Origin: a virus
Taxonomy: Duplodnaviria; Heunggongvirae; Uroviricota; Caudoviricetes
Length of the DNA: 64,000 nt
Virus record (IMG/VR): IMGVR_UViG_3300007770_000878
Strand: one strand, 5' to 3'
A program made the position numbers and the translations under genes. Below are positions 6,127 through 41,678 of the stretch, piece by piece (position 1 is the stretch's first letter; every line of letters begins with the position of its first letter). The notes under the pieces are model-generated. The model was given only the letters and a program-made list of their open reading frames with translations, was not told the origin of the DNA and made no database searches.

Positions 6127-6179
6127 CCGTGTGTATCTCCAATGGTGGACTCGACTTTGATTGTAAACCCTTTGAGGGT

Positions 6180-11591: not shown

Positions 11592-11652
11592 GAGGAATAG
11601 CCTTCCATTGGACGTAAAGGGTGTAGTAACCAGCAGTTTAGCACAGACTAGG

Positions 11653-18561: not shown

Positions 18562-18566
18562 GCGTC

Positions 18567-18962: not shown

Positions 18963-18969
18963 CGGTTCC

Positions 18970-19242: not shown

Positions 19243-19250
19243 GTGGGTCC

Positions 19251-19715: not shown

Positions 19716-19783
19716 CCGTCTTCCTCGTGTGTTGGTTGCCGCACTTTATCTTTAGACATTCTAGCCTCCAGAGGGAAAGTACG

Positions 19784-20428
19784 CTAGAGTTCGTAGCCAA
19801 GTAGTTGTAACGTCTCGCGGTCTAACTTGCTGTCCGCATAAGCTTTCTGCCCTGGCAACAGCTGCTGATTCCGTTTTTGGTAAGCTGAAGTCGGCTTCAG
19901 ATTAGGCCGCACACTACGGTGCTCCAACTGCCAATCTGTATGAAGGCGGGGCAAGTCGAATGCTTTTTCGACGCGAGCTAATACCTTGCCTTGGTCTGCT
20001 TCCAGTTCTTCCTGGGTAACTTGCTGCAAAATGGCTGGGTCGTCTGAAAGCGTTAGCCAGTGCTTGTTGAGTTCGTTGTAGGCTTTGAACGGACACCCTT
20101 GATAGGTGTTGGAGTATTTGAGCAAGTCGTCCATATTCCGACGAAATCCGCCTTGCCGGTTCTCCCAACGCAACTGCGAGAAGAACCAAGTGTATGGATG
20201 TTTGGTACAGATAACGAAGCGGATGTCCTCTGCAACCATGTTACGCTCAGGTAGATTTACCTTGCGGTTCTCGATTTTGTTTCTGCCGTGTTTCCAACTG
20301 TCACCTTCGTTCGACCAGACGGTGCAATCGAAATTTCGCTGTAGCAACAGCATGGTGAGGTTGGTGCAAGTACGTGTCAGCCCGTAGATCTTGATGCAAC
20401 GCTTGGCCACATTAGCCTCCAAAGGCAA
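19784..20428 (-). CDS. hypothetical protein (214 aa)
   Basis: ORF. A weak resemblance to sulfotransferase-like folds is not supportable. Confidence 0.45.
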   Translation of the reverse strand: MPLEANVAKRCIKIYGLTRTCTNLTMLLLQRNFDCTVWSNEGDSWKHGRNKIENRKVNLPERNMVAEDIRFVICTKHPYTWFFSQLRWENRQGGFRRNMDDLLKYSNTYQGCPFKAYNELNKHWLTLSDDPAILQQVTQEELEADQGKVLARVEKAFDLPRLHTDWQLEHRSVRPNLKPTSAYQKRNQQLLPGQKAYADSKLDRETLQLLGYEL

Positions 20429-21251
20429 TAGGAACTAGATTAGCCACCATACCTGCCCACATACCGGTACTTTTTAGCCGGTCCTGCGTAGACGGCGGCA
20501 TTCCCATCATAGTGCCGAGGGCTTTACCGACAAGGGCCCCAGAGAGGTAACCCGAGCCCATACCTGCGGCCATACGTCCAATATCCATTGGTGTGACAAA
20601 GTTCACATTACGTCGGCCCGGCAGATTAGCGGCTCCGGTAACAAGCCCGGTGGCTGCAGCTTGAACGGCCGGTGAGAGAGGTCGCGACACTCGAGGATCT
20701 TTCCAGATGATCTGGTTGAACTCGTTAACTGGGATCGGTGTAAAGGAACCCTCCAGGCCTGTATTATCATAGGACTGTTTGATCTCATCGTGAACCGCTG
20801 TCTTCTCTCCCTGGTACGGAGAAGCCGGTCCTGTGATTAGCGAGGGGTCGTTGAAGTTGCGATCATCCCCCATGTTTACCATGCCCCAGGCGGCTCCGGG
20901 AGCCATTCCGGCTCCGGCACCCAGTAGGGCGAGGGTTCGGCGAAGTCGTCTACGTTTCCATTCCTTGGGTAAGACAGCTTCGCCAACAGTACCCAGACCG
21001 TAGCCTAGAGCACCGCCAGCCATGCCGCTGACCAGCATTGAGGCCAACGGGGAGGGGGCGTTGGGTATGCCGCCAGGAAACTTGCCCGGCAACAAATTCA
21101 TGGATTCGCCTAAAGTACGCAACGTGGGCGAGTAGGCGTCCTTTTCAAACGCCTCAAGGATTTCGGCTCGTTTCTCGTTAAAGAGAGCCACAGCCGTCTC
21201 GGGCACACGTTGCCATTCAATTAGCTCGCGAGTCTTTTCCAGTAGGTCCAT
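20412..21251 (-). CDS. Gly-rich putative membrane protein (279 aa)
   Basis: ORF with Gly/Ala-rich hydrophobic stretches (GxxxG-like). It starts 7 nt downstream of the conserved 18-nt motif copy 1. Confidence 0.5.
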   Translation of the reverse strand: MDLLEKTRELIEWQRVPETAVALFNEKRAEILEAFEKDAYSPTLRTLGESMNLLPGKFPGGIPNAPSPLASMLVSGMAGGALGYGLGTVGEAVLPKEWKRRRLRRTLALLGAGAGMAPGAAWGMVNMGDDRNFNDPSLITGPASPYQGEKTAVHDEIKQSYDNTGLEGSFTPIPVNEFNQIIWKDPRVSRPLSPAVQAAATGLVTGAANLPGRRNVNFVTPMDIGRMAAGMGSGYLSGALVGKALGTMMGMPPSTQDRLKSTGMWAGMVANLVPIAFGG

Positions 21252-21258
21252 GGTTTCT

Positions 21259-21276
21259 CTGATAGCTAAAAAAAGG
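21259..21276 (-). promoter_or_regulatory. conserved 18-nt intergenic motif copy 1 ('CTGATAGCTAAAAAAAGG' on plus; 'CCTTTTTTTAGCTATCAG' in gene orientation)
   Basis: Identical 18-mer at three sites. It lies 7 nt upstream of the start at 21251 and overlaps the stop of the upstream gene. Confidence 0.55.
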
Positions 21277-24200
21277 TCATACGTACGGACGACTCAGCTG
21301 CGGGGTTGCTGGCATCATGTGCAACACCCGATCAAGGGGATTGGACATGATGGGATCGTAACCCTCAAGACTGGCCAAGGCTCGTTGCCAACGTTGCCCC
21401 ATCGGAGCCAAGGCCAGGTTGAGGCTATCAGTATTATAGGCTTTGGCGACGTTTTGCCGACCCTGTATTAACAAGGCGTTGATGTAGTTGCTAGCGTTAC
21501 GCAGAGCAGACTGGTCGCCTCGGTAAAGGTGTGCAGGGTTTACTTGGGAGAAGGCTCGCAGGTAGTGCGAATCTGTGCTGTGCTTGACTTCAGGTACTGT
21601 TGGCTGCTCAGCAGCTTCCCTGGCTTTCTCTACTGCCCGGTGAGTGTAGTAGGTTCCGACGCCGCCTTTGGCACCGCCTAAGATAGGCCCAGCAACACCA
21701 AGGGTACTACCGATTTGACCAGACAACGCTTGCGATAAGGGCTGCATCGTAACTAGCCGCCGCAACGCGTTGGCACTGCCTACGGCGGCTTGGGCCGCGT
21801 GACGGCCCACACTACGGCCACCAGCAATACCTGCTGCTGTCCACAATGGGATGTTATATTTCTCCGGGATAACTGTAGACCATTCCAGCGGCTTTTGGAT
21901 GATCGGGTCGTGTAGAATGTCGCCTGGAGTTTGCCAGTCGCCTTGGCCCATCCGGTAGCCGCCGTAACCGGCACCGCCTACGACGCCTGCGGTGCCCAAC
22001 GCGGTTCGGCGATTTGCGGTTAGCAGTTTGTTCCACAAGTAGTCGTTAGCCTTCCGACCAAGCTTTGACTGCCAGCGAAGTAGGTGCTTGACGCCAGGTA
22101 GTGTCAGAAGTCTAGCAAGTGAGGCTTCTTTTTCCAGGGCTGTGTGCTCGTCGGGATCTATTCCGATCCCGAGTTCAGCGAGTTTTTCAGACGTGAGTCC
22201 GAGGTCTGGCTGGACGAGAATTGATTTTTGCCTACTACTGGCTTCTCGGTTAGTGCACGCTGCACGGACCAACCTCGCTGAAGACGCCTGGTCAATGTCT
22301 GCTGCCTGATTCCCGACTCTCTCGCCCATTGTGTCAGATGCTTGGTTTCGCCGCGAAAAGTCAAGCACACGTTGCTCCGAGTGTTTGCTGCCTGTTTCTC
22401 GAGAGGTATCCAAGTGCAATTCGTGGGACAGTAGTCTTTGTCGTTGTTCTCCCTCTCCAGCGAATAACCGTCTGGGCACGTTCCCATGTCTTCCAGAAAG
22501 TTCTCGAAGGAGTCCCGCCACCTTGCACATATCTTTATGCCTCGTCCTCCGTAGTGTTTGTAATTGTGCCGTTTTGGGTCCAGGCAGCGGCGTTTCATCC
22601 CCGCCCACACCTTGTATGTTTTCGTTCCACTTTGTCCGTGAGTCGTTCTGGATTTGTGTCCTTGCAGAAACCTGCCTAGACTGTTTCGTTGTTGCATAAG
22701 GTTGATCCTCGTGAAAAGCCAGAAAGCTCGGTGCTCGATAAGCTCCGCTAGGAAGCTGTTCTTGCGATTGGATTCGTGCAATCCTTCCGGCATAGTCTTG
22801 ATCGTTCTCGAAAAGGGACCTGCGTAACTCGTCCGTGAAACCTGTTCCTACCTTACCAATTATAGGCCCGTCAGGTGTGAGTGAGTATTCGAAGCCGCCA
22901 GCACCCGATCCTTCGTGTTTACCTTTGCCCGGAAATGCTTGGCGATAATACACGTCTACGTCTTCTAAAATTTTTCCTTTCGTGGGGGGACCGTGTAGCG
23001 GATGCATGACTACACCCTCTCGAGTAATCGGGTGCTCACCAGACTGTATTTGTTGCCAGAGTCTCTGGGCGGCTTCGGGCGTCTCTGCGGCTTCTGAGAT
23101 GTGAAACGTCTCGGGCGGTAGGTGCTCAAGAACTTTTCGAATCATATCCCTACGCTCGAGCCGGGGAGTCACATGCCAGTCGATTGGTTTGTTGCCTAGC
23201 TGTTGGATATCGTAAACGGCATTTCTGAGTTTTACTTGTCGCTCTCGCTGGTCTTGGATTGATTTGGCGACGGAGGAGTTGAGCAGTCCTCCAAGTTCTT
23301 GAGGGCGGAGTACTCGCTCTCGCTGAGTTGGTCTACCGGTACCGGCGGAAAGAGCCTCTTGAAGATATTCTCCGAGTCCGTCGTCTTGGGGCCTAACAGT
23401 TCCGGGAACATCCTCCTGGTCTGCTCTCTCTGAAACTCGAGTATCTCTTTCTCGCCCTCCGTCAGGTTCAAAGCTCCCTTCCGCCAGCTGAGGTTCATCA
23501 GCAACATGGCCGCGTAGAGGGTCTCCCTTGTCAGCGGAGCCATCACCATCTCCGGATCCTCCAGGTCGCACTCCGTAGAGTTCGCCTTTAAGTACCGTGC
23601 CAACCAGGTCGTCTGGGATGTTGTAAGCGGGGAGACCATGAAGCAATCTTTCTGTGTGAAGTATCGGTCGGCCCGTTTCCTTGGACGTACGGTAGGACAT
23701 CACCTCGACGCCCTCTTTCATTAGTTTAATCAGCGAGGAGGCCCCGTCAACCTTTGCCTCCAGAGTATCGCCTTTTTGCATTTGGCCGATGTACTTGTCG
23801 ACCTGCTCCGCTGGAATCTTTTTGTACCGTACTTTCTCGTACGGCAATTGCTCAGTCGGGGTCTTGTTGATAAGCAACCAGTCTTTATCTTTCCAGCCCT
23901 TCGGTTTGATCATCACGAAGCGTTGCGGGTGCTTCTTGTGGGCCATGGTGAAGTGGATAGATTCCGGACTGGCTTTGGTAATGAGAAGTTTGCCATCCTC
24001 TTGTTTCTTAACCCGTCCAGCCCCATAGCGTCCGCTAGGAATTGTGCCCTCCCAATCTTTGTACTTGTAGGAGTGCATGGGCTGCTGGAATAGGGCGGTT
24101 CGTCCGCCAATGCCGGGCATCGGTTTTCTGGTTGCCCAGGAGAAGAGCCCTTTGGGGTCTCCGAATCGGAAATCAAAGTGAGGGCCAGCTCTCTCGGCAA

Positions 24201-24474
24201 GATGCCGTTGGATAACGAAGTCCAGTAACTGCGGAGAAACTCTAGATAGGTCGCCATAGTACTTTCGGTCTGGAATGCCTTTCGCGTCTTCACCCCTCTT
24301 TTCGTGAATTTCCCCATGGAGGCGATTTTCCCGAACGGGAAGATACGAAAGAAGTTCTGGCCACAAACCCCCTGTTAGGGGTGATGATACCTTCTCCAAA
24401 TTCCCGATCGGGAATCCGAGCATAGACATCTCTTCGGCGTCAGTGCTGAGTTCAGGCAGCAAGATATTGGGCAT
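21277..24474 (-). CDS. LigD-like 3'-phosphoesterase (PE) domain + ATP-dependent DNA ligase. The track ORF (1065 aa) continues without a stop into a Gly-rich C-terminal region
   Basis: PE domain: 'HFDFRFGDPKGLFSWATRKPMPG...DWEGTIPSGRYGAG' matches LigD PE 'HYDFRLE..G.LKSWAVPKGPS...DFEGSIPQGHYGAG'. Ligase motif I is 'EAKVDGAS', motif III is 'VLKGELYG', motif IV is 'REGVVMH', and motif V is 'KGKILEDVDVYYRQAFPGKG'. The GTGF region is 'IIGKVGTGFTDELR'. Residues about 560-772 overlap the HNH-like ORF in another frame and look compositionally non-native (Arg/Ser/Gln-rich). Confidence 0.7.
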   Translation of the reverse strand: MPNILLPELSTDAEEMSMLGFPIGNLEKVSSPLTGGLWPELLSYLPVRENRLHGEIHEKRGEDAKGIPDRKYYGDLSRVSPQLLDFVIQRHLAERAGPHFDFRFGDPKGLFSWATRKPMPGIGGRTALFQQPMHSYKYKDWEGTIPSGRYGAGRVKKQEDGKLLITKASPESIHFTMAHKKHPQRFVMIKPKGWKDKDWLLINKTPTEQLPYEKVRYKKIPAEQVDKYIGQMQKGDTLEAKVDGASSLIKLMKEGVEVMSYRTSKETGRPILHTERLLHGLPAYNIPDDLVGTVLKGELYGVRPGGSGDGDGSADKGDPLRGHVADEPQLAEGSFEPDGGRERDTRVSERADQEDVPGTVRPQDDGLGEYLQEALSAGTGRPTQRERVLRPQELGGLLNSSVAKSIQDQRERQVKLRNAVYDIQQLGNKPIDWHVTPRLERRDMIRKVLEHLPPETFHISEAAETPEAAQRLWQQIQSGEHPITREGVVMHPLHGPPTKGKILEDVDVYYRQAFPGKGKHEGSGAGGFEYSLTPDGPIIGKVGTGFTDELRRSLFENDQDYAGRIARIQSQEQLPSGAYRAPSFLAFHEDQPYATTKQSRQVSARTQIQNDSRTKWNENIQGVGGDETPLPGPKTAQLQTLRRTRHKDMCKVAGLLRELSGRHGNVPRRLFAGEGEQRQRLLSHELHLDTSRETGSKHSEQRVLDFSRRNQASDTMGERVGNQAADIDQASSARLVRAACTNREASSRQKSILVQPDLGLTSEKLAELGIGIDPDEHTALEKEASLARLLTLPGVKHLLRWQSKLGRKANDYLWNKLLTANRRTALGTAGVVGGAGYGGYRMGQGDWQTPGDILHDPIIQKPLEWSTVIPEKYNIPLWTAAGIAGGRSVGRHAAQAAVGSANALRRLVTMQPLSQALSGQIGSTLGVAGPILGGAKGGVGTYYTHRAVEKAREAAEQPTVPEVKHSTDSHYLRAFSQVNPAHLYRGDQSALRNASNYINALLIQGRQNVAKAYNTDSLNLALAPMGQRWQRALASLEGYDPIMSNPLDRVLHMMPATPQLSRPYV
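22158..22793 (-). CDS. HNH/AP2-type homing-endonuclease-like protein (211 aa), embedded in an alternative frame of the ligase ORF
   Basis: 'TYKVWAGMKRRCLDPKRHNYKHYGGRGIKICARWRDSFENFLEDMGTCPDGYSLERENNDKDYCPTNCTWIPLEKQAANTRSN' is the signature of phage free-standing HNH/AP2-domain endonucleases ('Y..W..M..RC.......Y..YGGRGI.VC..W..F..F..DMG.RP.G.SLDRID....Y.P.NCRW....EQ..N.R'). Confidence 0.65.
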   Translation of the reverse strand: MPEGLHESNRKNSFLAELIEHRAFWLFTRINLMQQRNSLGRFLQGHKSRTTHGQSGTKTYKVWAGMKRRCLDPKRHNYKHYGGRGIKICARWRDSFENFLEDMGTCPDGYSLERENNDKDYCPTNCTWIPLEKQAANTRSNVCLTFRGETKHLTQWARESGIRQQTLTRRLQRGWSVQRALTEKPVVGKNQFSSSQTSDSRLKNSLNSGSE

Positions 24475-26552: not shown

Positions 26553-27005
26553 CTAGAACAATAGTCGAAAATACAACATCTCTCTACCAGACCATGCGAA
26601 GCTTGGGCTGTAAAGCCGAAAGCCTTGGCTGACGAGAGAATTTGCCGACGGATAGTTGTCGGCGGAAGTGTACGTCAAAACACCCGACCAACCTTGCCGC
26701 CTTGCATACGCCACTCTGGCCCGTATGAGGCGTTTTTGCAACCCCTGTCCACGATGCGAGGCAATCACCCCAGCTCGGCAGAAGTAGGCACAGTCATCGG
26801 GTTTTGTAAGATACCTGAGGCCAGCATAGCCAACAGGTGATCCGTTAGTCTTATCCCTGGCGATCCACCACCAGGTTGTACCAAACGGCTCTCGATGTAC
26901 GTCCTTGTCCGGAAAGCACTTTTCGTCCAGGCGACGGATGACCTCGGCGAGATGGTCGTTCTTGTCCCCTGGCCTGTATTCAAGTCGCACAGTGTAGTCG
27001 CCCAT
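26553..27005 (-). CDS. GNAT-family N-acetyltransferase (150 aa)
   Basis: GNAT motif A-like 'AGVIASHRGQGLQKRLIRARVAYARRQGWSGVLTYTSADNYPSANSLVSQGFR'. Confidence 0.6.
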   Translation of the reverse strand: MGDYTVRLEYRPGDKNDHLAEVIRRLDEKCFPDKDVHREPFGTTWWWIARDKTNGSPVGYAGLRYLTKPDDCAYFCRAGVIASHRGQGLQKRLIRARVAYARRQGWSGVLTYTSADNYPSANSLVSQGFRLYSPSFAWSGREMLYFRLLF

Positions 27006-27027
27006 TACTACTCCGTTAGGGTAGACG

Positions 27028-27543
27028 TTACTTGAATGCGTTCTTGCGTCGGACTCCTATGGTGATATGGAACTTGAACCTATTGTCCTTGGGCAACGCA
27101 GATAGCCCGTAGCTTTTCCGCAGGTTCTGTAGTTCGGGTGAGTGGACCTCGATCATCCACACTTTGGACATTTCGTCCCAACCATAGGGCTTCACACATT
27201 TTACCGGTCCGAGGGTGTACCGAAAAGTGTGACCGCGTTCCCTGATTTTGCCAGATCCCCCGATTTTATCGATTTCGTCCTTGCGAAAGACAGAAATATG
27301 GGCATTAAATGTCCCGCTGTCCTGTCGCGGCAGCTCTACGCCGGGTTCTTCCAGGGCGTCGAAAGCACCGTGAACAAGGGCGTTTGGGACGCTAAGCAGG
27401 CCCCAGCCGGAGTTGGAGATATAGAGTTTGCCTGCCAGCCCATACGACAGCCATGGTTTGCTGGAGACCTTCACGAAGTCGTGAGACAGCTCGTAGAGGG
27501 CCTGGCCTGGCGTCGTTACTGTACTGGGACGATACAGGCTCAC
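27028..27543 (-). CDS. 2H-family phosphoesterase (LigT/ThpR or Acb1-like 2',3'-cyclic phosphodiesterase; 171 aa)
   Basis: Two H-x-(S/T)-x motifs about 78 residues apart, 'FNAHISVFR' and 'FKFHITIGV'. This is the hallmark of the 2H phosphoesterase superfamily. Confidence 0.55.
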   Translation of the reverse strand: MSLYRPSTVTTPGQALYELSHDFVKVSSKPWLSYGLAGKLYISNSGWGLLSVPNALVHGAFDALEEPGVELPRQDSGTFNAHISVFRKDEIDKIGGSGKIRERGHTFRYTLGPVKCVKPYGWDEMSKVWMIEVHSPELQNLRKSYGLSALPKDNRFKFHITIGVRRKNAFK

Positions 27544-28250: not shown

Positions 28251-29183
28251 TTAACTCTCGTAGTCAAGCGAAAATTGCTCGACACCTTCCCGCCAATCCG
28301 GCAGAGGAATAGGTACTACATCAGCGAATTTGCTACAGTCGAGAGCCGTATGGTATGGCAGGAGCTTAGCGTCCCAGCCACCGAAGGCCTGCGACATCTG
28401 TTCGCGTGTAGTTGACCGGATCTTTAGCGGACGTCGTGAATTTGACGAGATTTCTTGCCCAAACTGGTAGGCAGAACAGTGACCTAGATTGCCAACGTGG
28501 TATACACCCGACGGCATTTCACGGTAGTGCCGCACCAACCAGACCAGAGCCTTGGCCAGGTGCGGAGCGTATGTCGGAGTGAAGATCATGTCGGAAGCAA
28601 GGGACACCTCTTCGCCACGGCGGTTATCCGCTTGACGAAGTATCCGGCTGACGAGGTTCTGGTTTTGTCGCCATGGGCGTTCGTACAGAAGTCCTGTGCG
28701 AATAACCCAGTACCGGAAGCCTTTTTGCCAAAACTCGGGGCAAACACATTGCCCAAGTCGGAGCACGCTGTGCTCAGCACATGCTTTCGTAATAGCCAGT
28801 TGGTGGCAAGGCACCACCGGATCGGTCTCCGTACGCGGCCTAGGGTCGCGGTTGGAGCCGAAAACACTGTCACAACTGATATGTACAAAAGGAATCCCGT
28901 GCAAGGCACATACCTTAACGAGATTGTCCGTCCCCTGAACGTTAGTCTGCCAGCAATCATTCCGCTTGTGTTCGGCAGTAACCCAATCCGTCATAGCAGC
29001 GGTATGGATAACAGCGGCTGGTCGCAGCAAAGGAATCAGTTCCTTGACCTTCGTCATGTCGGATACGTTGAAGGTCTCGCGGGGCTTGGCTATTACAGAC
29101 TCCTCGCCCAGCTGCCGCACCAGTTCCATCCCTAGCTGGCCGTTGGCTCCAGTGATCAGATATTGTTGGATGGATTCTGGCAT
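28251..29183 (-). CDS. NAD(P)-dependent sugar epimerase/reductase, dTDP-4-dehydrorhamnose reductase (RmlD)-like (310 aa)
   Basis: N-terminal Rossmann motif 'YLITGANGQLGMELVRQL' (RmlD: 'LLTGANGQVGREL'). Length and layout fit the RmlD/SDR extended family. Confidence 0.65.
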   Translation of the reverse strand: MPESIQQYLITGANGQLGMELVRQLGEESVIAKPRETFNVSDMTKVKELIPLLRPAAVIHTAAMTDWVTAEHKRNDCWQTNVQGTDNLVKVCALHGIPFVHISCDSVFGSNRDPRPRTETDPVVPCHQLAITKACAEHSVLRLGQCVCPEFWQKGFRYWVIRTGLLYERPWRQNQNLVSRILRQADNRRGEEVSLASDMIFTPTYAPHLAKALVWLVRHYREMPSGVYHVGNLGHCSAYQFGQEISSNSRRPLKIRSTTREQMSQAFGGWDAKLLPYHTALDCSKFADVVPIPLPDWREGVEQFSLDYES

Positions 29184-29918
29184 TTAGCTAACCGCAAATT
29201 TGTAGTGGGTGTCAATGACCGTACGAAGGTAATCAGAAGATTCTTCTGGTAAGGTCCACCTACCTTTATGGTCCGGGTTAGCGTGCAGACCCATGACGTG
29301 GAAATGGTCCCACGTGTTGTGTCCTGTGAAAAACCGCAAGTAGAGGTGCGGGTTGGCTGCATTATCAAGAACGATCATTTTGTCCTTGAAGTGGTCTTGC
29401 AAAAAGTGGTCGTCCTCAGCTTTACGCTCAGAACGATAGGCCAGGCCTGGTTTGTTGGGGTGCAGAACGGTGCCGGGAATGGCCGGGTTGGGTTTGTAAG
29501 GCCACCGAAAAGCTTTCGCAGAATCGTTAGGAAAACTGTATCGGACTTGACACTTTAGCAAAACGGCGTGGTCGTCAACGGCCTCGTCCATCTGCATAGC
29601 GATTCGCCAAGGATGGTACCAGTCGTCATCGTCCCACTGTATAACCCATTCGCCGTCAGCTTTCTCTAAGCCTTTGTTACGAAGATCGCCTAGTGTGTAA
29701 GCTCCTGACGGAAATGTCGATTCTCTAATATCGGTACCAGGGGGTAAACTGGTAGACAGGAACGGTAACAACGGCACTTTGCCGTCATTGATGATGACCA
29801 ATTCCTTATTGGGCCAGGTTTGCGACAAGAAGCTCTGTACTGCCGCCAGAGCATACGGTGCTCTTTCAGGATCCTTCCCGGTGACCATTACAGCAGTCAC
29901 TAACGGGATGTTGGACAT
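29184..29918 (-). CDS. glycosyltransferase, GT-A fold / family 2-like (244 aa)
   Basis: 'VTAVMVTGKDPERAPYALAAVQSFLSQTWPNKELVIINDG' and an acidic 'WDDDDW' (DxD-like) motif. Confidence 0.55.
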   Translation of the reverse strand: MSNIPLVTAVMVTGKDPERAPYALAAVQSFLSQTWPNKELVIINDGKVPLLPFLSTSLPPGTDIRESTFPSGAYTLGDLRNKGLEKADGEWVIQWDDDDWYHPWRIAMQMDEAVDDHAVLLKCQVRYSFPNDSAKAFRWPYKPNPAIPGTVLHPNKPGLAYRSERKAEDDHFLQDHFKDKMIVLDNAANPHLYLRFFTGHNTWDHFHVMGLHANPDHKGRWTLPEESSDYLRTVIDTHYKFAVS

Positions 29919-30056: not shown

Positions 30057-30719
30057 TTAGGAGCGGCGGCTATCCTGCACCTCGAAGCAACGCCGCCTAA
30101 TCAGGACGGCTTCGTACTGCTCAGCAGCTTTTCTCGTAGCGAATGGTTGGCCTTGGTCGTCCAGGTAAGTTCGATGCCCGAATAATACCCGAAACTTTGG
30201 TTCCCACTCGATTACAAACGCGGAAGGATGCAAAGCAGCGAACTCGAGGTAACATCTTCCCCCCTGGGAAAATGAGGCACACAGCCGATCCCAGAAGGTG
30301 GGTGGCTTAACTCGGTCGATAGTGCAAACTATGCCCAGCTTGGGTAGAGGCTTGAGGGGCGGGTAATCCGATGTTTCGTCGAGATCGACCACGTTAGGCC
30401 GGGCCGGGCGGTTGTAGTTAGCCACAACCCCGCGTTCGCCGTTATTCCAGCGATCACGTAAATCTGGAACATCTACTCCCATAATAAATTGGCCACTGCA
30501 GGTCGGGCAGCGGATACTCAGCATCAGGGCTTCGCCAAACACCACAGGCTTGACGCCGCAATCGCAAGGTTTCAACTCAGGTATGGTGGTCATGTGCCCT
30601 CCATGTAAAAAAGGTGTTCTGGCAAGAGCCAACTCCAATTCGGCGGCGACTGCCCTCGCCACTGGATAATCCCTGATCCTTGTTGGGACTCCGTCCCAAA
30701 GCGATGAGGGCTCCTCCAT
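30057..30719 (-). CDS. hypothetical Cys-rich protein (220 aa), putative zinc-binding
   Basis: 'CDCGVKPVVFGEALMLSIRCPTCSGQF' CxC...CxxC cluster. Confidence 0.45.
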   Translation of the reverse strand: MEEPSSLWDGVPTRIRDYPVARAVAAELELALARTPFLHGGHMTTIPELKPCDCGVKPVVFGEALMLSIRCPTCSGQFIMGVDVPDLRDRWNNGERGVVANYNRPARPNVVDLDETSDYPPLKPLPKLGIVCTIDRVKPPTFWDRLCASFSQGGRCYLEFAALHPSAFVIEWEPKFRVLFGHRTYLDDQGQPFATRKAAEQYEAVLIRRRCFEVQDSRRS

Positions 30720-30750: not shown

Positions 30751-31152
30751 CTACTTCTTTGCTTTGGACGGTTTTGGCGAACCGTACTTGCTGCGGCCTT
30801 GGTTTCGCCGCTGCTTGTTAGCACCTTCGGTAACGCCGATACAGTCAAGCGTACCGCGAACAACACGGTACTTAACGCCGGACAGATCAGGTGGGCCGCC
30901 GCCTCGCACGAGCACGGTGTTGTGCTCCACGATGTTGTGGCCTTCGCCCGGAATGTGGCACGTCGCCTCGTTGCCATCGGCAAACCGGACCCGACACACC
31001 TTGCGGTTAGCTGAGTTGGGCTTACGCGGCAACATCACCCAAGCCTTTAGCACTGTTCCTCGCCGCTGCGGGTTTTCCTGCATCAGCCGGTGCTTGGACT
31101 TGTTCCTTGGCTTTCTGCGGTTCTTGCGAACCAGTTGGTTGGTTGTTGGCAT
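30751..31152 (-). CDS. rpsL: ribosomal protein uS12 (RpsL) homolog with C-terminal basic extension (133 aa)
   Basis: '[10 protein letters not shown]...[65 protein letters not shown]...RSKYGSPKP' aligns residue-for-residue with bacterial S12 ('NQLVRK...[65 protein letters not shown]...RSKYGVKRPK'). SD 'AGGAG' lies upstream. Confidence 0.85.
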
Positions 31153-31185
31153 CCGTACTCCTAGCCATGGTTGTTAAAAGCAAAA

Positions 31186-31211
31186 GCACCGGGATCTTTG
31201 GGTCCCGGTGC
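31186..31211 (-). terminator. intrinsic-terminator-like hairpin + U-tract (minus-strand sense) between the SPFH gene and rpsL
   Basis: Plus strand: A-rich 'aaaagcaaaa', then 'gcaccggga tctttggg tcccggtgc' (9-bp stem). In minus orientation this is a hairpin followed by 'TTTTGCTTTT'. Confidence 0.55.
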
Positions 31212-31243
31212 TTCACTTCAGCAGTTGCGTTGGCAACTCACGT

Positions 31244-32725
31244 TTACTCGACGGGCTTCGTCGCGTCTTTGGGAATGATCCCCAGGGCTCGCAACAGTGT
31301 AAGGTTGATCAGATTGCTTTGGAGATTTTCTCCGCCACCACCTGAGTCACTACCTTTACCGCCGACGATGACGACGCCTGGTACCTTTAACCCAGCAAGG
31401 GCTGTGGCGACCTTAGCATCGCGTTCGGCAGCGATCTCTGCAAGAACGCGTTCTTCTTCCGACAGAGCACCGCCGATCTCCAGAGCCTTTTGTTTGGCTT
31501 CGGCGACGGCAATCTCGGCCTTCTTATCCTCTTCCGCGATCTTGACCTGGACTTCGGCAATCTCAAATCGGGTGTCGGCTTCCAGCTTTTCTTGCTGGGC
31601 CACCTCGACCTTTTGTGTAGCCTCGGTCACGGCTTTATCTTTGTTGATGATTGCCACAGCCGCCTCTTTCTCGGCGGATACTGTCGCGGCCATCTTCTCT
31701 TTGTTTCCCTCTTGCTCGATACGGGCAACTTCAGATTCACCTTCAGCGATGATCTTCAGCTTCTCTTGTACGAACTGCTGTCGTTGGGCCTTAGCCTGTT
31801 CCGCCAGCAAGAACGATTCTTTCTTCGCAGCGAACTGTTTGAGGGTCTCTGGATCATAGTCAATATCGGTAACCGAGAATTGCTCAACCCCGATACCGTA
31901 CTTGGTCAGTGGCGATGCTTCAGCGATCAGCGGCTTACCTGTCTCGGTATCTCGCACGATCTCTGTCGCCATAACCTCGGTAGGCTTCTCGCGAAGAACG
32001 GGAGCCTTACCGTCCGCGTTGGCCTCTACTTCGATCAACGCCTGATCTTCGAGAGTAACTCTTGTTTGTCGCATCACGTATAGGCCGTCTTGCATCATGT
32101 TCTGAATGACTTGAGCAAACTCGGCTTTGCGTGACGCCTGGTTCTCGCTAGCAGACATTAGCGGTGCCGCCGCTTTAACGCAGTTAACAAGGTGAGCCCG
32201 TACCGCCTGCGAGGTGTTGTCAATGTTCGCAGAATACACACGGTGGAATGCTCGACGTTGGTCCTCCTCTGGGGGAGTGGAGAACCTAACGTACACCGAC
32301 ACCTTAGCGGTGCCGCCGTCGTTAAAGGTGCACCGAATCGAATCGTCCTCTTCACCGCCTTCCTTGTGGTGGGCCGAGTAGAACGAGTCACGGTAACGCG
32401 GGTAGTCAGTTACGGTACCGAACATGTTGAGGTAGTAACCGCCACGGTCAATCACCGTGATCTTGCCCGTAACAGACTGGTGGATTTGCCACTGGTCGTC
32501 GCGGTTGTACCCCATATTTCCAAACAAAACAATCAGTGCGACGACGCCGAGAACGGCGGCGGCTGCGTAGGCAAAGTGCTTACGTTCCATGGGTGAATTG
32601 CTCCTACCTGGGTTTGCCAGGATTTGCATGGTCTTGTTTGTCTGCAAGGCCGTGTGCCTCCAGACGTCTACGCGATGCGTCAAGACGTTCGGCTTCAAGA
32701 CGGTTAGCCTCGACCCTGTTCGCAA
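31244..32725 (-). CDS. SPFH/band-7 (flotillin/HflKC-like) membrane protein (track ORF 493 aa; likely start at internal 'MERKHF...')
   Basis: N-terminal TM 'AAAVLGVVALIVLFGNM'. SPFH core followed by a long Ala/Glu/Lys coiled-coil ('IAEGESEVARIEQEG...EIAAERDAKVATALAGL') and 'LINLTLLRALGIIP'. Confidence 0.7.
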   Translation of the reverse strand: MRTGSRLTVLKPNVLTHRVDVWRHTALQTNKTMQILANPGRSNSPMERKHFAYAAAAVLGVVALIVLFGNMGYNRDDQWQIHQSVTGKITVIDRGGYYLNMFGTVTDYPRYRDSFYSAHHKEGGEEDDSIRCTFNDGGTAKVSVYVRFSTPPEEDQRRAFHRVYSANIDNTSQAVRAHLVNCVKAAAPLMSASENQASRKAEFAQVIQNMMQDGLYVMRQTRVTLEDQALIEVEANADGKAPVLREKPTEVMATEIVRDTETGKPLIAEASPLTKYGIGVEQFSVTDIDYDPETLKQFAAKKESFLLAEQAKAQRQQFVQEKLKIIAEGESEVARIEQEGNKEKMAATVSAEKEAAVAIINKDKAVTEATQKVEVAQQEKLEADTRFEIAEVQVKIAEEDKKAEIAVAEAKQKALEIGGALSEEERVLAEIAAERDAKVATALAGLKVPGVVIVGGKGSDSGGGGENLQSNLINLTLLRALGIIPKDATKPVE

Positions 32726-36911: not shown

Positions 36912-37736
36912 TTACGACATCGAACGAGGATTACATGGCACCGATTCCGACAACATTCGCTCAACGCGGATGTTATTGTCTTTGCAGTATGCCAGAGTTT
37001 GCTCCTGATCGTAAAGCGGGTCGCAGACAAAGATGCTCGGAGCTAAAACGCTAAGTACACTGGACTGGTCGGGTTCGGTATAGGTTACCGTTGCATCTAC
37101 AACAGGCAACGCGTTAAGCAGCCGCCTACGCGATGAAAGTGTCAAGAGCGGCGGGTTTCCATGCTCGTTCTCGACGGCAGCGTCAGACTGGACGCCGACT
37201 ATCAGGCTGCTGCCCAACTCGGCAGCACGCTCCAACTGCATGTAATGACCCACGTGAAATGGGTCAAATACGCCAAACATGTAGGTGACCGGCTTCGCTG
37301 AACTGGGCGACAGTCTAACGTCCATGCGAAGCTGCTCAACAGTCCGTGAGCCTACTTTGCTAAGCAGATCAAGCCACATACTGTCTTCTTCGTCCAGTAT
37401 AGCCAGTAGCAGATGCTCAGTTCCTACGTACAGACCATCCACGTCACTTGAGTAGGTTATCGCCTTGTCCGTCACACGTTTACAGCGAGGAGTCCTCGGT
37501 AGGCTGTCCACATAGACTATATAGCTAGGACCGTCGCCAAGCCGAGCAGCCATAAATCGTTCGACATCTCCGGCAAAGACATTAGCGTTGTTGAGCACGG
37601 TCTGGGCAATGCCACCGCTTTTGAGCAGACCGTACACGACATGCTCTACGCCGATGTACTCGTGCCGCAGGCGTTTGGCAAAACGCTTGGCTTCGGTGAA
37701 GCTATGGTGTGCTCTGTCGGTAAATCGTTCAAACAT
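36912..37736 (-). CDS. fusion of Clp N-terminal (Clp_N double repeat) domain with a class-I nucleotidyltransferase (cytidylyltransferase-like) domain (274 aa)
   Basis: 'MFERFTDRAHHSFTEAKRFAKRLRHEYIGVEHVVYGLL' and the second repeat 'LYVGTEHLLLAILDEED' match ClpA/B/C N-domain repeats ('MFERFTDRARRVL..A..EA.RL.H.YIGTEHLLLGLL'). The C-terminus 'MFGVFDPFHVGHYMQLERAAELGSSLIVGVQSD' carries the (H/T)xGH nucleotidyltransferase motif. Confidence 0.6.
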   Translation of the reverse strand: MFERFTDRAHHSFTEAKRFAKRLRHEYIGVEHVVYGLLKSGGIAQTVLNNANVFAGDVERFMAARLGDGPSYIVYVDSLPRTPRCKRVTDKAITYSSDVDGLYVGTEHLLLAILDEEDSMWLDLLSKVGSRTVEQLRMDVRLSPSSAKPVTYMFGVFDPFHVGHYMQLERAAELGSSLIVGVQSDAAVENEHGNPPLLTLSSRRRLLNALPVVDATVTYTEPDQSSVLSVLAPSIFVCDPLYDQEQTLAYCKDNNIRVERMLSESVPCNPRSMS

Positions 37737-37744
37737 GTTGTCCT

Positions 37745-38221
37745 TTACGGGACCAGAAGGCCCTTCAAAACCTCGATACCTTCTTCTAGCGTCTCGATAT
37801 GAAACGCACAGACCTCCTCGAGGAGTGGGTGAGAATGCATCCCGTCCTGCTCCATCACCAAGACGATTGGTTTACGGAAAGCATCAGCCCAGGCGATTTC
37901 CATCACCGTGCCGATTGAGATGCGATTGGTGTTGAGCAAGTTAACAAACACTACGTCGGACCGCATCACATCCCACCGATCGCGGTTAGTGATGGACTTT
38001 TGCTTAGACATCGTGTGCTCCTCGTACGAGGGAGCAATCTCAGTCTCGCCTGCCAAGTAGTGTTTGTGTCGTAACGGCGACAGGGCTGTAATTCCGTAGC
38101 CCGCTAGAACGTCAGATGTTTCTTTTCGCCAGTCAGTGACCGTGTCGTAGCCCTCACCGGTAATAGGTCCGGACAGATACACGTTCACGCCAGAAGACAC
38201 GTTTGTTTGGGTCTCGTACAT
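37745..38221 (-). CDS. nucleoside 2-deoxyribosyltransferase-like protein (158 aa)
   Basis: 'VYLSGPITGEGYD' near the N-terminus and 'TNRDRWDVMRSDVVFVNL...GTVMEIAWADAFRKPIVLV' with the conserved Glu-Ile-Ala context of the NDT family. Confidence 0.6.
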   Translation of the reverse strand: MYETQTNVSSGVNVYLSGPITGEGYDTVTDWRKETSDVLAGYGITALSPLRHKHYLAGETEIAPSYEEHTMSKQKSITNRDRWDVMRSDVVFVNLLNTNRISIGTVMEIAWADAFRKPIVLVMEQDGMHSHPLLEEVCAFHIETLEEGIEVLKGLLVP

Positions 38222-38260
38222 TTGAATTCCTAGAACTCGTTAGTCGAAGACCGCCCTTGG

Positions 38261-38758
38261 TCAGTTGGAAGTAGCCGTGCGGGCTACTTTAGTAATCACG
38301 TCAGATAGGCCCCTACGTTTCGAATCCTTGCTCCAAATCCTACGTTCCCAGACTTCGGGGTCGAAAGCAGTGTGGGTCTCTTCGTACACTGGTGCAGTGA
38401 CCTTCCGTAACACGCCGCTGTTGTCGTGATAAATCATCGTGTACAGCCCAGATTTGGCTTTGTGCGGATACAGAGCCGGTTTGTCGACCCTGATCATATG
38501 CCAGTGCTGTACCACATATCTTCGCGGTAACTGGCCATTCTTTTTCTGATACCAAAGCGGGCCGTCCAGGTATTCCCGCTGCTTCGCGTCCAGGTAGATC
38601 TCTTTGAAGTCACAGCACAGCAACTGGGTCAGCTGCCAACGGCCAGCATCGTCATACACATGGTTGATCTCCAATCGATCGAAGTGATCGTGGATGATCA
38701 ACGAAGGCATGCCGTGACCACTGGCTCCGAACAACAGAATAAGAGTGAAAGCGTTCAT
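38261..38758 (-). CDS. hypothetical secreted protein (165 aa, N-terminal signal-like segment)
   Basis: 'MNAFTLILLFGASGHGMPS' hydrophobic N-terminus. Confidence 0.4.
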   Translation of the reverse strand: MNAFTLILLFGASGHGMPSLIIHDHFDRLEINHVYDDAGRWQLTQLLCCDFKEIYLDAKQREYLDGPLWYQKKNGQLPRRYVVQHWHMIRVDKPALYPHKAKSGLYTMIYHDNSGVLRKVTAPVYEETHTAFDPEVWERRIWSKDSKRRGLSDVITKVARTATSN

Positions 38759-39033
38759 TGGATCAGTCCGTCGATAATGGTTTCGAGTTTGGCCACTCGC
38801 AACTCAAGGCGAGGCGTATGGTAGTAGCAAGCTTCTTCGTAAAGCATATCGGCAGACTCCTGGATCTTTCGCAGGGAACTGTATAGTATTTCGCGAGTAT
38901 CAGAGCCGTCTACAAGATTGTCAATGATCGACTGCATGGTTGCATGCATTGCTTGGCAACGCCGCTTTATTCGATCCTGTGCTTTCAGGGTGGCGAGCTT
39001 GTGCCGCCCTAACTGTGCATCGTAATCTGTCAT
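38755..39033 (-). CDS. hypothetical small protein (92 aa)
   Basis: ORF; start/stop coupling with neighbours. Confidence 0.35.
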   Translation of the reverse strand: MTDYDAQLGRHKLATLKAQDRIKRRCQAMHATMQSIIDNLVDGSDTREILYSSLRKIQESADMLYEEACYYHTPRLELRVAKLETIIDGLIQ

Positions 39034-39042
39034 CGTAGTGCC

Positions 39043-39804
39043 CTAGAAAGGAAACCATTGACGACGAATAACTTCTCGCCGCTCGTAATGCCCCTGTCCG
39101 CTCGACACCGCTTCCTTTCCTTCGGGTAAATTGTGAAAGCGACCGTGAAGCATGCCCGGAACGCAGTGAAAACACTTTCTTCCGTTGGCCAAGAAGCCGG
39201 GCCAGCTCACGTCGCCATCGTGGGCAATCGCCCCGAATGGTGCTTTGAGTAAGGCGGATCTACGGGCTATCCAAAATCTGCCTTTGACTATGTCCACCGG
39301 CGAGTCGACCTTAGGTAGGTTGACGCCGGGGCTCTCTCGGTAGGTCTTGTCGGGTTCGAGAACAATCCCGTGAGACCCGATAATGACATCGTCGTCCTGC
39401 TTGGCCAAGAAGCCCAAACAATCCTGCAAGACTGCCGGATCGGCCAGCGATAGGTCGTCGTCAATTTTGCCAACGAACTCGGTGTCACAAAGAGCCATCA
39501 TGCTGGCCCAAGCTCCGCACCGCAGATTGCGGCTGCTACGAATAATCGTATCGCACCTAGCAACAAGGTCGCTAGGAAGCTTGTCAGGAGAGTTGTTCCA
39601 CATCCAGATAGCCGGTGAACAGCTTTGGGCTGCTACACTGTTCACAACGCGTCGTACGTTATTGGGCCGACGGTGTGTCAGCAACCCCATCGTCAGTTTC
39701 GCGGTCATTGTAAAACACCATAAACCGGTGAGGACTAAACTGGCCAACGCTGGGCAGTAACGCGGCGAGCTTATTGATTTGAGAAGTGTATGCCTGCCCA
39801 GCAA
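39043..39804 (-). CDS. putative glycosyltransferase (GT-A-like; 253 aa)
   Basis: 'FVGKIDDDLSLADP' and 'KQDDDVIIGSHG' acidic motifs. Weak assignment. Confidence 0.4.
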   Translation of the reverse strand: MLGRHTLLKSISSPRYCPALASLVLTGLWCFTMTAKLTMGLLTHRRPNNVRRVVNSVAAQSCSPAIWMWNNSPDKLPSDLVARCDTIIRSSRNLRCGAWASMMALCDTEFVGKIDDDLSLADPAVLQDCLGFLAKQDDDVIIGSHGIVLEPDKTYRESPGVNLPKVDSPVDIVKGRFWIARRSALLKAPFGAIAHDGDVSWPGFLANGRKCFHCVPGMLHGRFHNLPEGKEAVSSGQGHYERREVIRRQWFPF

Positions 39805-40510
39805 CAGGTACGTTCAACTTGTCCTTGAGAACGCGGGTGATAGCGAAGTAGGTGCTGTGGTTGTCGTATGGCCTAGCAAGCAGGCGAAAGCCTAGGTCAT
39901 GTAGCCACTTTGTTGTCAACTCGCCATTAAGATAGAGATTTTGCTCCGGCATCTGTAACGCAGGTAGCCCGACCTCAACTCGAAATGCATTCAGCGTACG
40001 GAACCCCTCGCCAATAGGCTCCTGCAATATCAGCTGCTTGCGGCTTGCATCGGCTAGGTTCTTGATCGCCTGATGTTGTCTGGCTCGAGTGCCTAGGTTA
40101 CAGAGAACGCGAGACGTATACACGGCGTCCCATTGCCGATCAAAGGGTTCGCAAACGTCGTGCTGGAAGTAGTTGGGGCAATCGGCTGAGGCTATATCGA
40201 TCGCTTGCTGGTTTAGATCACAGCCGTAAAAATCAATTTCGGGAAAATTCTTGCGGTAAACCGCAGTAGAGTGCCCGTTGTTGCAGCCAGCGTCTAGAAA
40301 TGAGTCGATTTGTCGGATCACAGACGCCCGCGTAGGCTCGAGTGTGATCGGGTAGGGGGTTAGCCAAGGGGTCAACCATCTGATCAACGACTCCCGCTCT
40401 TTCTCTACGGCAAAAATGTCAGCCCAGGAAGAGTCGGAAGAGTTGGCATGTTTCTGGATACGTTGTTCCCAGAACTCAGCGTTGCCCTCGGGCAAACGGT
40501 AGTCGGTCAT
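39659..40510 (-). CDS. class I SAM-dependent methyltransferase (283 aa)
   Basis: Motif I 'SFLDAGCNNGHSTAVY' and motif II-like 'IDFYGCDLNQ'. Confidence 0.55.
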   Translation of the reverse strand: MTDYRLPEGNAEFWEQRIQKHANSSDSSWADIFAVEKERESLIRWLTPWLTPYPITLEPTRASVIRQIDSFLDAGCNNGHSTAVYRKNFPEIDFYGCDLNQQAIDIASADCPNYFQHDVCEPFDRQWDAVYTSRVLCNLGTRARQHQAIKNLADASRKQLILQEPIGEGFRTLNAFRVEVGLPALQMPEQNLYLNGELTTKWLHDLGFRLLARPYDNHSTYFAITRVLKDKLNVPVAGQAYTSQINKLAALLPSVGQFSPHRFMVFYNDRETDDGVADTPSAQ

Positions 40511-40511
40511 G

Positions 40512-41069
40512 TTATAGCTTTCTAAAAGCGACCATCATCCCGGCCAGGCCGAGAAGTTCCCAGTCAGAGCTGTTGGTTAGCCTCTGGTCTACCACGTCGG
40601 TGATCTCGGGCCATTTAGCACTACCGTAGTCATGCAAGATGATCACACCACCATCGACGATCTTAGGCAGCCACTCATCTAGCTCTTTGTTTAGGACCGA
40701 CGCCTTGTGATCGGTATCGATGATCAGTGCTGAGACTTGTTTGATGGAGGGCTGAGGTTTGGTGGATTCGGCTCGCATAAGTCCGGGAAAGTACCCCAGT
40801 GCCGCCAGGTTGTTGTGGGTAGTCCACAGGTCATTCTTGCCGTGGTGCTGCATCTTGAAATGATCGATGCCGATCACAAATAGGTGACCAGGTCGATCGA
40901 CTACAGCTCCGCAAATAGCGGCGGTGGAGCGGCCTTTGAAGGTTCCTAGCTCTACCACCAACCCGATAATTGGAACCTCGTTTAGAATCGTGTCATATAG
41001 GAATTCGAGTTCTTTGACTGTTGTCAGCCCCTCAATTCCCATAGCCATGCTAACTCGCTGAAACTTCAT
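40512..41069 (-). CDS. SAM-dependent O-methyltransferase, TylF/MycF (Methyltransf_24)-like (185 aa)
   Basis: 'GLVVELGTFKGRSTAAICGA' and 'GVIILHDYGS'. Confidence 0.55.
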   Translation of the reverse strand: MKFQRVSMAMGIEGLTTVKELEFLYDTILNEVPIIGLVVELGTFKGRSTAAICGAVVDRPGHLFVIGIDHFKMQHHGKNDLWTTHNNLAALGYFPGLMRAESTKPQPSIKQVSALIIDTDHKASVLNKELDEWLPKIVDGGVIILHDYGSAKWPEITDVVDQRLTNSSDWELLGLAGMMVAFRKL

Positions 41070-41676
41070 CGGTCATCCCCTGGAAGCACGCAAATTGAGA
41101 GAGGTCTGGGTAGATTTCCTGTTGATCGGCATTGTAATCCGGCAAACGACTCAGCCGTAGAAGGCCTGCTGCTGCGAAGACAGGGTCGAGCGTGTAGTGC
41201 CAGCCCACCATTTCGATATCATCCTCTCGTAGTGGCACCTCCGGATGTCGTCCCGAAAAGCGAGCTTCACGGAGCCACCGATCGGCGTCCGGATCGTCGT
41301 GAAGAATCATACCACCGCGACCGGCGTTGAGGATTTTGGAGAAGTGGAAGGACAGGCATTGCATACGACCAGGTACGAACATGCCGCTGGTGAATCTCTT
41401 GGCCGAATCCCAAATACAGGTGTCACCAAGCTGGTATTCACCAGACCAGGTCCAGTCGGCGAAGCGGACGCGGCCGCCTGCATGAATGATCTCGCAAGGT
41501 ACAGACACATAGGTCCGCTTCGGAATTTTGATGTAAGGTTGTTTGTCTACGTGTTCGTGTTTGCAGCAGAGAAAGAGGGCGTGGGTGCAACTATCGACTG
41601 CCACCGCATAAGGGGCACCGCAGTACTTGGCCACCTCTCGCTCAAACTCTTCAACCACTACATAGGGGTTGCTCAT
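41050..41676 (-). CDS. DegT/DnrJ/EryC1/StrS-family (sugar aminotransferase/dehydratase-like) protein, short form (208 aa)
   Basis: 'EFEREVAKYCGAPYAVAVDSCTHALFLC' (compare 'FE.EFA.Y.G.KYAVAV.SGT.AL.LAL') and 'LSFHFSKILNAGRGGMIL' (PLP-Lys context 'SFH..K...GEGGMI'). Confidence 0.5.
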   Translation of the reverse strand: MSNPYVVVEEFEREVAKYCGAPYAVAVDSCTHALFLCCKHEHVDKQPYIKIPKRTYVSVPCEIIHAGGRVRFADWTWSGEYQLGDTCIWDSAKRFTSGMFVPGRMQCLSFHFSKILNAGRGGMILHDDPDADRWLREARFSGRHPEVPLREDDIEMVGWHYTLDPVFAAAGLLRLSRLPDYNADQQEIYPDLSQFACFQGMTDEVSAS

Positions 41677-41678
41677 AA

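Follow-up and report, generated by a model that had tools for sequence, protein, structure and literature searches.

Can a virus encode a protein of the ribosomal decoding center, and if so, what would that protein do? The question is raised by a 64,000-nucleotide stretch of viral DNA assigned to the Caudoviricetes (IMG/VR record IMGVR_UViG_3300007770_000878; hereafter the window), in which a first-pass annotation, made from the letters alone, had noticed a homolog of ribosomal protein uS12 (RpsL) at positions 30,751–31,152. The pairing of codon and anticodon is monitored by S12 together with 16S rRNA, and S12 has been the classic genetic handle on how accurately ribosomes translate and how streptomycin acts. 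Virus-encoded ribosomal proteins as such are already known; what stands out here is a core decoding-center protein with remodeled functional loops.

A bacterial-type uS12 and its decoding loops

The S12 open reading frame (ORF) occupies positions 30751–31152 on the minus strand and encodes 133 amino acids between an ATG start and a TAG stop codon. In searches with hidden Markov models (HMMs), the product scores 82.1 bits against Pfam PF00164 (cutoff 22.3) and 146.1 bits against the NCBIfam equivalog TIGR00981 (rpsL_bact; cutoff 112.95), with residues 1–129 aligned to positions 1–123 of the 124-position model. A phmmer search of the PDB returned uS12 chains of many bacteria and organelles that are colinear over the full length (E = 5e-38). 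We built an AlphaFold2 model on 70 homologs; its OB-fold core (residues 11–100) has a predicted local distance difference test score (pLDDT) of 85–94, while the tails score low, as expected. The top Foldseek matches to this model are all S12 chains, with template-modeling (TM) scores of 0.72–0.80 and a root-mean-square deviation of ~2.1–2.4 Å over ~100 residues; S12 chains also make up the entire top 50 (TM 0.66–0.80 normalized to the target). By sequence matches and predicted fold, the product is unambiguously a bacterial-type uS12, which bears out the homology over nearly the whole length that the first-pass annotation had claimed. A plus-strand ORF at 30764–31177 was rejected, as it is merely the antisense shadow of this gene.

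To place the protein among its relatives, we searched ~5.8 billion proteins and examined the best 120 matches returned, which comprise the phage S12 itself and ordinary bacterial S12s at 54–62% identity, the closest at ~60%. The mean identity of the phage S12 to these matches is 58%, compared with 74% for the matches among themselves, and in a neighbor-joining (NJ) tree its terminal branch is ~10 times the median. Its distance to each bacterial phylum is about that of the most divergent S12s in the sample. An independent control consisted of 80 S12 loci of cellular organisms, taken from GTDB genomes that span many phyla (the best 80 cellular matches, 49–58% identity); 79 of these loci have rpsG directly downstream of S12. 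Forty-one alignment columns are invariant in these 80 proteins. The phage S12 keeps 33 of them and deviates at eight: C33V, V36A, and T38V in the strand leading to loop 1; Y65H; L73I and Q74V, which together with S77N alter the 73–77 segment; and V86P and P90S. Near-invariant sites are also changed (K42R, R85G, K87P, and R93K as well as S77N). Retained are the codon-monitoring residues P44-N45-S46, K43, H76, the RimO target D88, L89, G91, the RSKYG tail, the N-terminal rRNA-threading segment, the OB-fold core, and all 22 columns that show no variation across the alignment of 70 family members.

The two decoding loops illustrate where the protein has changed. Loop 1 (Escherichia coli residues 41–47) reads PRKPNSA in the phage S12 instead of PKKPNSA, and the residue at position 42 is lysine in 79 of the 80 cellular controls. 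The loop 2 motif GGRVKDLPG (E. coli residues 83–91) is broken at R85, V86, K87, and P90 and preserved at D88, L89, and G91; V86 and P90 are invariant in 80/80 controls. Judged from the alignment, change is concentrated at residues that anchor the decoding loops to 16S rRNA and at the streptomycin pocket (K42R, R85G, V86P, K87P, and P90S). The three positions that the first-pass annotation had singled out, K42, K87, and P90, are all altered. That annotation had also described a lysine-rich C-terminal tail and a modified N-terminal region, and here the comparison went the other way: KAKK-type tails occur in ~30–40% of the 120 closest bacterial S12s and the Thermus tail is longer, while the basic N-terminal segment varies in all S12s and only L23M stands out there. 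A six-residue TEGANK insert before RNQGRSKYG is ordinary as well, inserts being present at the same site in about a quarter of the 120 closest S12s. On this alignment, the unusual part of the phage S12 is its core and loop residues rather than its tail, insert, or N-terminus.

Variants at P90 and G91 are classically tied to restrictive or dependent phenotypes. K42R confers high-level streptomycin resistance without hyperaccuracy (it is non-restrictive), since the salt bridge to h27 is kept, and substitutions of K87 also give resistance (PMC2916820). The phage S12 resembles these resistance and fidelity alleles of rpsL (K42R, K42T/A, K87, and P90 variants) in carrying K42R along with changes at K87, P90, R85, and V86. 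However, the laboratory and clinical alleles are single changes in a host-identical protein, whereas the phage S12 is a natural, diverged protein with five pocket or loop changes. Human mitochondrial S12 has Gln-87 and has thereby lost K87 (PMC2916820). Mitochondrial uS12m and other naturally divergent S12s have features in common with the phage protein, such as this loss and an NSANRK-type loop 1, and mitoribosomal S12 chains are good structural matches, but the phage S12 scores higher to bacterial S12 and stands in a Caudoviricetes genome. With bacterial uS12 it shares full-length colinear homology at ~52–60% identity, the predicted fold, and basic N- and C-terminal extensions; it differs in standing alone, outside rpsL-rpsG-fusA, and in its changes at the eight cell-invariant columns and at K42, R85, and K87.

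As read from its sequence, the phage S12 is a long-resident gene and not a recent pick-up from a host, because the closest of the best 120 matches is ~60% identical and eight of the 41 cell-invariant columns have changed. Nor does the gene appear to be decaying, because the ORF is intact, the score exceeds the equivalog cutoff, and all 22 family-invariant columns are kept. NJ placement named neither donor nor host: in 67 bootstrap replicates no node rose above 15%, and the best 80 cellular matches span many phyla. The second-best match among the best 120 (P0002) was discarded as a relative. It is a 195-residue artefact from a 993-bp contig (L011, ENA ERZ933706), namely an ordinary S12 in which approximately residues 10–83 are tandemly duplicated, and this internal repeat inflated the HMM score.

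The phage that carries the gene

We read 13 contigs that carry the S12 gene, of which ten, from ten JGI, ENA, and Logan samples, are shown. All ten have the same gene order (Band_7, S12, unknown ORF, GT2 glycosyltransferase, epimerase), are at least 99.9% identical to the window, and have the Band_7 gene adjoining S12. Source samples include JGI 3300007510–12, 3300007754, 3300007760, 3300008952–54, and 3300009008 as well as SRR8062325. Because the same neighbors recur in ten samples, the gene is not an assembly artefact. Neither rpsG (S7) nor fusA (EF-G) was found in the 64-kb window, and S12 does not lie in a str operon.

The genome that carries S12 also encodes a multisubunit RNA polymerase and head proteins. 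A fused β plus β′-N subunit (11653–17310, minus strand; 1885 amino acids; Pfam Rpb2_6, Rpb1_2, and Intein_splicing) is accompanied by a β′-C subunit (7110–10172, minus strand; 1020 amino acids), and both genes are broken by LAGLIDADG inteins, at approximately residues 640–1020 and 212–756, respectively. The best tblastn matches of the polymerase are to Salmonella phage Arash and Vibrio phages D69, D181, and D148 (E = 1e-112 to 1e-126), whereas bacterial rpoB/C reach only E = 1e-36 to 1e-41. An 811-residue virion protein in the portal position (2534–4969, minus strand) matches Arash gp218, annotated as a structural protein, at both of its ends (BLASTP E = 4e-10 and 4e-8). This homology was seen in direct pairwise comparison only, and a tblastn search of the 364- and 811-residue proteins against phages gave no match. 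A JGI contig (L012), 99.7% identical to window positions 1–14969, reaches 7.5 kb past the window start. Its extension encodes a 490-residue protein with 41% identity to Arash gp222 (E = 1e-29) and weak similarity to annotated prohead proteases, and a 314-residue protein with 29% full-length identity to the Arash major capsid protein gp226 (E = 2e-34).

The order of these genes (RNA polymerase, portal-position protein, protease, acidic scaffold-like protein, capsid) is that of Arash, and the longest contig of the element puts its genome at 88 kb or more. Capsid, protease, portal-position protein, and RNA polymerase in Arash order therefore identify the element as a tailed phage of at least 88 kb. 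By sequence comparison it is a large, uncultivated tailed marine phage from a lineage that has Salmonella phage Arash and Vibrio phage D69 as distant relatives. The first-pass annotation had named a chimera with host DNA as what would overturn its reading; head and RNA polymerase genes on the same genome and identical synteny in ten samples establish that S12 is phage-borne.

The head module itself lies to the left of the window start, at positions 16425–21644 of the JGI contig, and consists of the 490-residue prohead-protease-like protein, a 522-residue scaffold-like protein that is very acidic and rich in Gly, Asp, and Pro, and the 314-residue major capsid protein. None of the three matched a PHROG or Pfam capsid family, and the module was recognized through pairwise comparison with Arash only. 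Within the window nearly all genes are on the minus strand at ~90% coding density, GC content is uniform (0.52–0.58), and the standard genetic code is used. No tRNAs were found in the window, and an Rfam scan of its 64 kb returned no group I or II intron, leader, or other structured RNA family. Most of the ~45 window and flank proteins compared with Pfam and PHROGs were without a family. Peptide scans of IMG/VR with S12, its Band_7 neighbor, and an exonuclease as queries revealed no close relatives. Two further proteins, of 1533 residues (51335–55936, minus strand) and 383 residues (4975–6126, minus strand), are of low complexity (Gly/Ala/Pro/Gln/Met) and have no family match. A 1065-residue protein (21277–24474, minus strand) combines LigD 3′-phosphoesterase and ATP-dependent DNA ligase (OB) domains; it is a single call in one assembly and is split or shortened in others.

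The immediate surroundings of S12 bear on its expression. As the first-pass annotation had stated, the gene has its own Shine-Dalgarno (SD) sequence, AGGAG at 31158–31162 as read from the minus strand, 5 nucleotides before the ATG. The same annotation had placed the gene between two terminator-like hairpins, of which only the upstream one was recovered. Our terminator scan located an intrinsic-terminator-like hairpin with its tail at 31173–31214 (minus strand; a 12-bp stem with seven GC pairs and an 8-nucleotide loop, followed by TGCTTTTAAC). The hairpin proper with its T-run spans 31214–31183, between the stop of the Band_7 gene (31244) and the SD sequence. No hairpin was detected between the S12 stop codon and the next gene, 31 nucleotides downstream. 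Because the count of terminator-like sites across the region is no higher than in shuffles, the call of the upstream hairpin relies on its stem length and intergenic position. Its location implies that transcription of S12 must either read through it or begin at an unrecognized phage promoter. GC content at third codon positions is 0.69 in the S12 gene compared with a phage average of 0.59 ± 0.04, and the synonymous codons of S12 match those preferred by the phage better than ~90% of the phage's own genes do. This codon usage is consistent with a resident, possibly well-expressed gene.

The upstream neighbor is an SPFH/Band_7 protein (31244–32590, minus strand; called at 448 amino acids, the longest ORF extending to 32725; PF01145; phrog_11908, E = 2e-43). 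The downstream neighbor is a 220-residue ORF (30057–30719, minus strand) without a family match that starts 31 nucleotides after the S12 stop codon and is called at 178 residues in some assemblies. Around them lie sugar-nucleotide and modification genes (28251–29918 and 36912–43606, minus strand), which encode two NAD-dependent epimerase/dehydratases, a GT2 glycosyltransferase, a DegT/DnrJ aminotransferase, S-adenosylmethionine-dependent methyltransferases, a fusion of Clp_N with a cytidylyltransferase, and a nucleoside 2-deoxyribosyltransferase. These genes may serve DNA hypermodification or the remodeling of surface glycans. Four kilobases from S12 (26553–27543, minus strand) are genes for a GNAT acetyltransferase and a 2H-SAK domain protein. 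The acetyltransferase matches Acetyltransf_1 and, weakly, Acetyltransf_3, the family of the RimJ/RimL type; any tie to the modification of ribosomal proteins is speculative.

Stand-alone S12 genes on other viral contigs

The published lists of viral ribosomal proteins consulted here do not include S12. Mizuno et al. 2019 (PMC6375957) screened the genomes of isolated as well as uncultivated viruses with an HMM panel that included Ribosomal_S12 (PF00164), and S12 is not among the 13 proteins they list in metagenomic viruses; they noted that viruses favor dynamic, exchangeable ribosomal proteins (bS21, bL12, bL9, bL31, and bL33). For huge phages, Al-Shayeb et al. 2020 (PMC7162821) list S4, S1, S21, and L7/L12 only. 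The first-pass annotation had tentatively placed uS12 outside the viral ribosomal proteins reported so far, which agrees with both lists. Full-text literature searches for S12 in connection with phages turned up no account of a virus-encoded S12, and no family in PHROGs v4 matches the phage S12. Among 50,697 GenBank phage records, the only S12 matches (15 records) look like bacterial contamination: where match tables could be checked, these records either were bacterial genome contigs, Salmonella among them, or also carried rpoB/rpoC. The phage S12 resembles the known virus-encoded ribosomal proteins (bS21, bL12, bL9, bL31, bL33, uS9, bS6, and others) as a single cellular ribosomal-protein gene resident in a phage, and its purpose is presumably likewise the manipulation of host translation. 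Those proteins, however, are mostly peripheral or exchangeable, whereas S12 belongs to the buried core of the decoding center and has diverged much more from its cellular homologs.

Scanning IMG/VR with an S12 alignment uncovered 19 loci. Five of these are host-type, with canonical sequences in the S12-S7-EF-G arrangement, and were rejected as contamination. In three, too little sequence remains downstream of S12 for a classification, and 11, on contigs of 11–442 kb, are stand-alone. We checked neighboring genes at nine of the 11. Phage-typical neighbors are present at L031 (phrog_17 DNA polymerase), L025 (phrog_62 helicase and an exonuclease), and L035 (minor-head-protein domain), and L023 has a weak tail-fiber match only. 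Less specific neighbors are found at L020 (RCC1-repeat protein), L022 (transposase), and L026 (HNH endonuclease); the neighbor at L028 matched no family. L036 encodes a fused RNA polymerase of the type found in the window (36% identity over 763 amino acids, E = 6e-133), which indicates that at least one related phage lineage also carries S12. Stop-codon recoding was considered at L036 and dismissed, the low ORF density there having come from an ORF that runs off the end of the locus. At two other stand-alone loci, L021 and L024, ORF density is very low under the standard code (0.51–0.58), and treating any one stop codon as sense does not clearly restore it; the loci may hold many small genes or use an unusual code, or the cause may be a different one.

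Three Logan contigs add further stand-alone S12 genes, situated beside tail-fiber genes (L017), a CCA-adding enzyme (L018), and a TROVE/Ro60-like gene (L041). The second of these (1903–8024 of the locus; SRR29078151) is phage-like and encodes an S12 (P0099) with K42R, a tRNA nucleotidyltransferase (phrog_2244, E = 3e-52), and a phage phosphoesterase. In the third (258–2322; SRR29078269, 17 kb), the gene for a divergent S12 (P0020) immediately follows, on its downstream side, one for a TROVE (Ro60-like) plus VWA protein, and the contig also encodes a helicase and a Laminin_G_3 protein.

Stand-alone viral S12s deviate at 1–10 of the 41 cell-invariant columns, whereas the host-type S12s of IMG/VR deviate at none. 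Changes that recur in the window S12 and the stand-alone S12s include C33V, T38V/I, variants of Y65, K87P, and replacement of P90 by S, A, G, or R. K87P is present in five of the 11 stand-alone IMG/VR proteins and in 0/80 cellular controls (Fisher p = 1e-5); P90 is changed in three and in none of the controls (p = 0.0014), and K42 in three and in a single control (p = 0.005). The recurrence of changes at the same sites points to selection, as far as an alignment can tell. In NJ trees the window S12 always falls among the divergent stand-alone sequences; bootstrap support is not meaningful at any node, so that these trees do not distinguish shared descent from convergence or long-branch attraction. 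One cellular S12 carries comparable changes. P0017 (L039 6001–9025, ENA CARD22-1 scaffold_547) has K42R, P90A, and G91N in a normal S12-S7-EF-G operon, which indicates that K42R and P90A are compatible with a working ribosome. From its sequence, this lineage looks like a group of bacteria with a naturally altered streptomycin pocket.

It is tempting to speculate on what these genes have in common. Stand-alone uS12 may form a recurrent class of phage gene, which we have not found described, with systematically remodeled decoding and streptomycin loops (K42R/C, K87P, P90S/A/G/R, C33V, and T38V). Large phages would then build specialized ribosomes by exchanging a core decoding protein rather than a peripheral one, changing the accuracy, speed, or drug sensitivity of new 30S subunits in the infected cell. 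We offer this generalization tentatively and regard it as possible rather than probable.

Possible roles of the phage S12

For the window itself, the sequence suggests a model in which the phage S12 takes the place of the host protein in those 30S subunits that are put together during infection and so alters tRNA selection, the aminoglycoside pocket, or both. We give this model a probability of roughly 0.55. S12 would be made during infection from its own SD sequence, through read-through of the upstream hairpin or initiation near it, and would be built into newly assembled 30S subunits in place of the host protein. The resulting ribosomes would have altered kinetics or fidelity of tRNA selection and an altered aminoglycoside pocket, to the advantage of the phage. 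Only subunits made after infection would be affected, because mature ribosomes are unlikely to exchange S12.

Several considerations weigh against this model. S12 is a buried interface protein in the ribosome, and being so deeply embedded, it could be incorporated only while 30S assembly is ongoing, a process that many phages shut down. In merodiploids, rpsL alleles for streptomycin resistance behave as recessive, which makes a resistance benefit from partial replacement doubtful. The strong hairpin directly upstream could keep expression of S12 low. All S12-bearing loci are at least 99.67% identical, with a single variant (N61D), and such near-clonal copies offer no usable diversity for gauging purifying selection, for which the retained invariant residues and the codon usage speak indirectly. 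The protein may or may not fit the 16S rRNA of its host. The presence of K42R and P90A in the str operon of P0017 indicates that such changes are not unique to phages. Finally, S12 falls outside the exchangeable class named by Mizuno et al. 2019 (PMC6375957).

The last of these points would also suit an S12 that works outside the ribosome, as a free RNA-binding protein or RNA chaperone that helps phage RNAs fold or splice or that titrates a host factor. In vitro, the E. coli protein acts as an RNA chaperone on group I introns of phage T4, mature ribosomes do not readily exchange S12, and the residues that have drifted are those of the decoding loops, which are relevant inside the ribosome only. 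Nevertheless, the window contains no group I or II intron or other Rfam RNA on which such a chaperone might act, and what mobile elements there are, namely inteins, do their work at the level of protein. P44, N45, and S46, which contact the codon-anticodon helix, are retained together with H76 and D88, none of which a free chaperone would need, and both the N- and C-terminal rRNA-threading segments persist. We therefore consider an extraribosomal role unlikely. The same loop changes could instead be read as counter-defense, in which an altered S12 serves as a decoy or makes translation insensitive to a ribosome-targeting weapon of the host or the community. Such a weapon would work by way of the S12/h44/h18 pocket and might be an aminoglycoside-like compound, a toxin, or a modifying enzyme. 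Substitution of K42 and K87, sites of streptomycin contact and resistance, and of P90 fits this idea, as does the repeated alteration of these positions in other stand-alone phage S12s. But the recessive nature of rpsL resistance means that mixed ribosomes would stay sensitive, no companion resistance or anti-defense gene was recognized beside S12, and we know of no defense system directed at S12. This role seems to us a little less likely still.

Two explanations would deprive the gene of any role in infection. It might be a neutral passenger, the slowly decaying remnant of an old host capture that drifts under relaxed constraint; the high divergence, the loss of cell-invariant residues, and the very narrow distribution, in one near-clonal population, could all be taken this way. 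Yet the ORF is intact, has a good SD sequence, and scores above the equivalog cutoff, and the 33 of 41 cell-invariant columns and every invariant column of the 70-sequence family are kept. Phage genomes purge useless DNA fast, this gene follows the codon preferences of the phage more closely than ~90% of phage genes, and independent phage contigs retain stand-alone S12 genes with similar changes. We rate a passenger as less probable than either alternative function. Or the gene might not be viral at all, but a host S12 on a contig that is misassembled or cellular: all cells carry an S12 gene, and most S12 matches in phage databases are contamination. Against this stand the identical synteny of the ten contigs from ten samples, the lack of S7 and EF-G downstream where 79/80 cellular loci have S7, the presence of capsid, protease, portal-like, and phage-type RNA polymerase genes on the same molecule, and the uniform GC content. 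A cellular origin of the contig is accordingly very improbable.

Incorporation into new 30S subunits is thus the role that we favor for the phage S12. According to the accepted pattern, viruses take peripheral, exchangeable ribosomal proteins such as bS21 and bL12, and the phage S12 breaks this pattern. The phage copy is altered at the very residues through which accuracy and streptomycin action have been manipulated genetically, and similar changes occur in about a dozen other stand-alone S12s on viral contigs. The comparison also yields a rule that distinguishes a real viral S12 from contamination, namely the lack of S7 and EF-G downstream together with deviations at cell-invariant columns. 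If the phage S12 is incorporated into ribosomes, it would be a natural example of a virus that reprograms decoding itself, and it would provide naturally evolved S12 loop variants for the study of translational fidelity and aminoglycoside binding.

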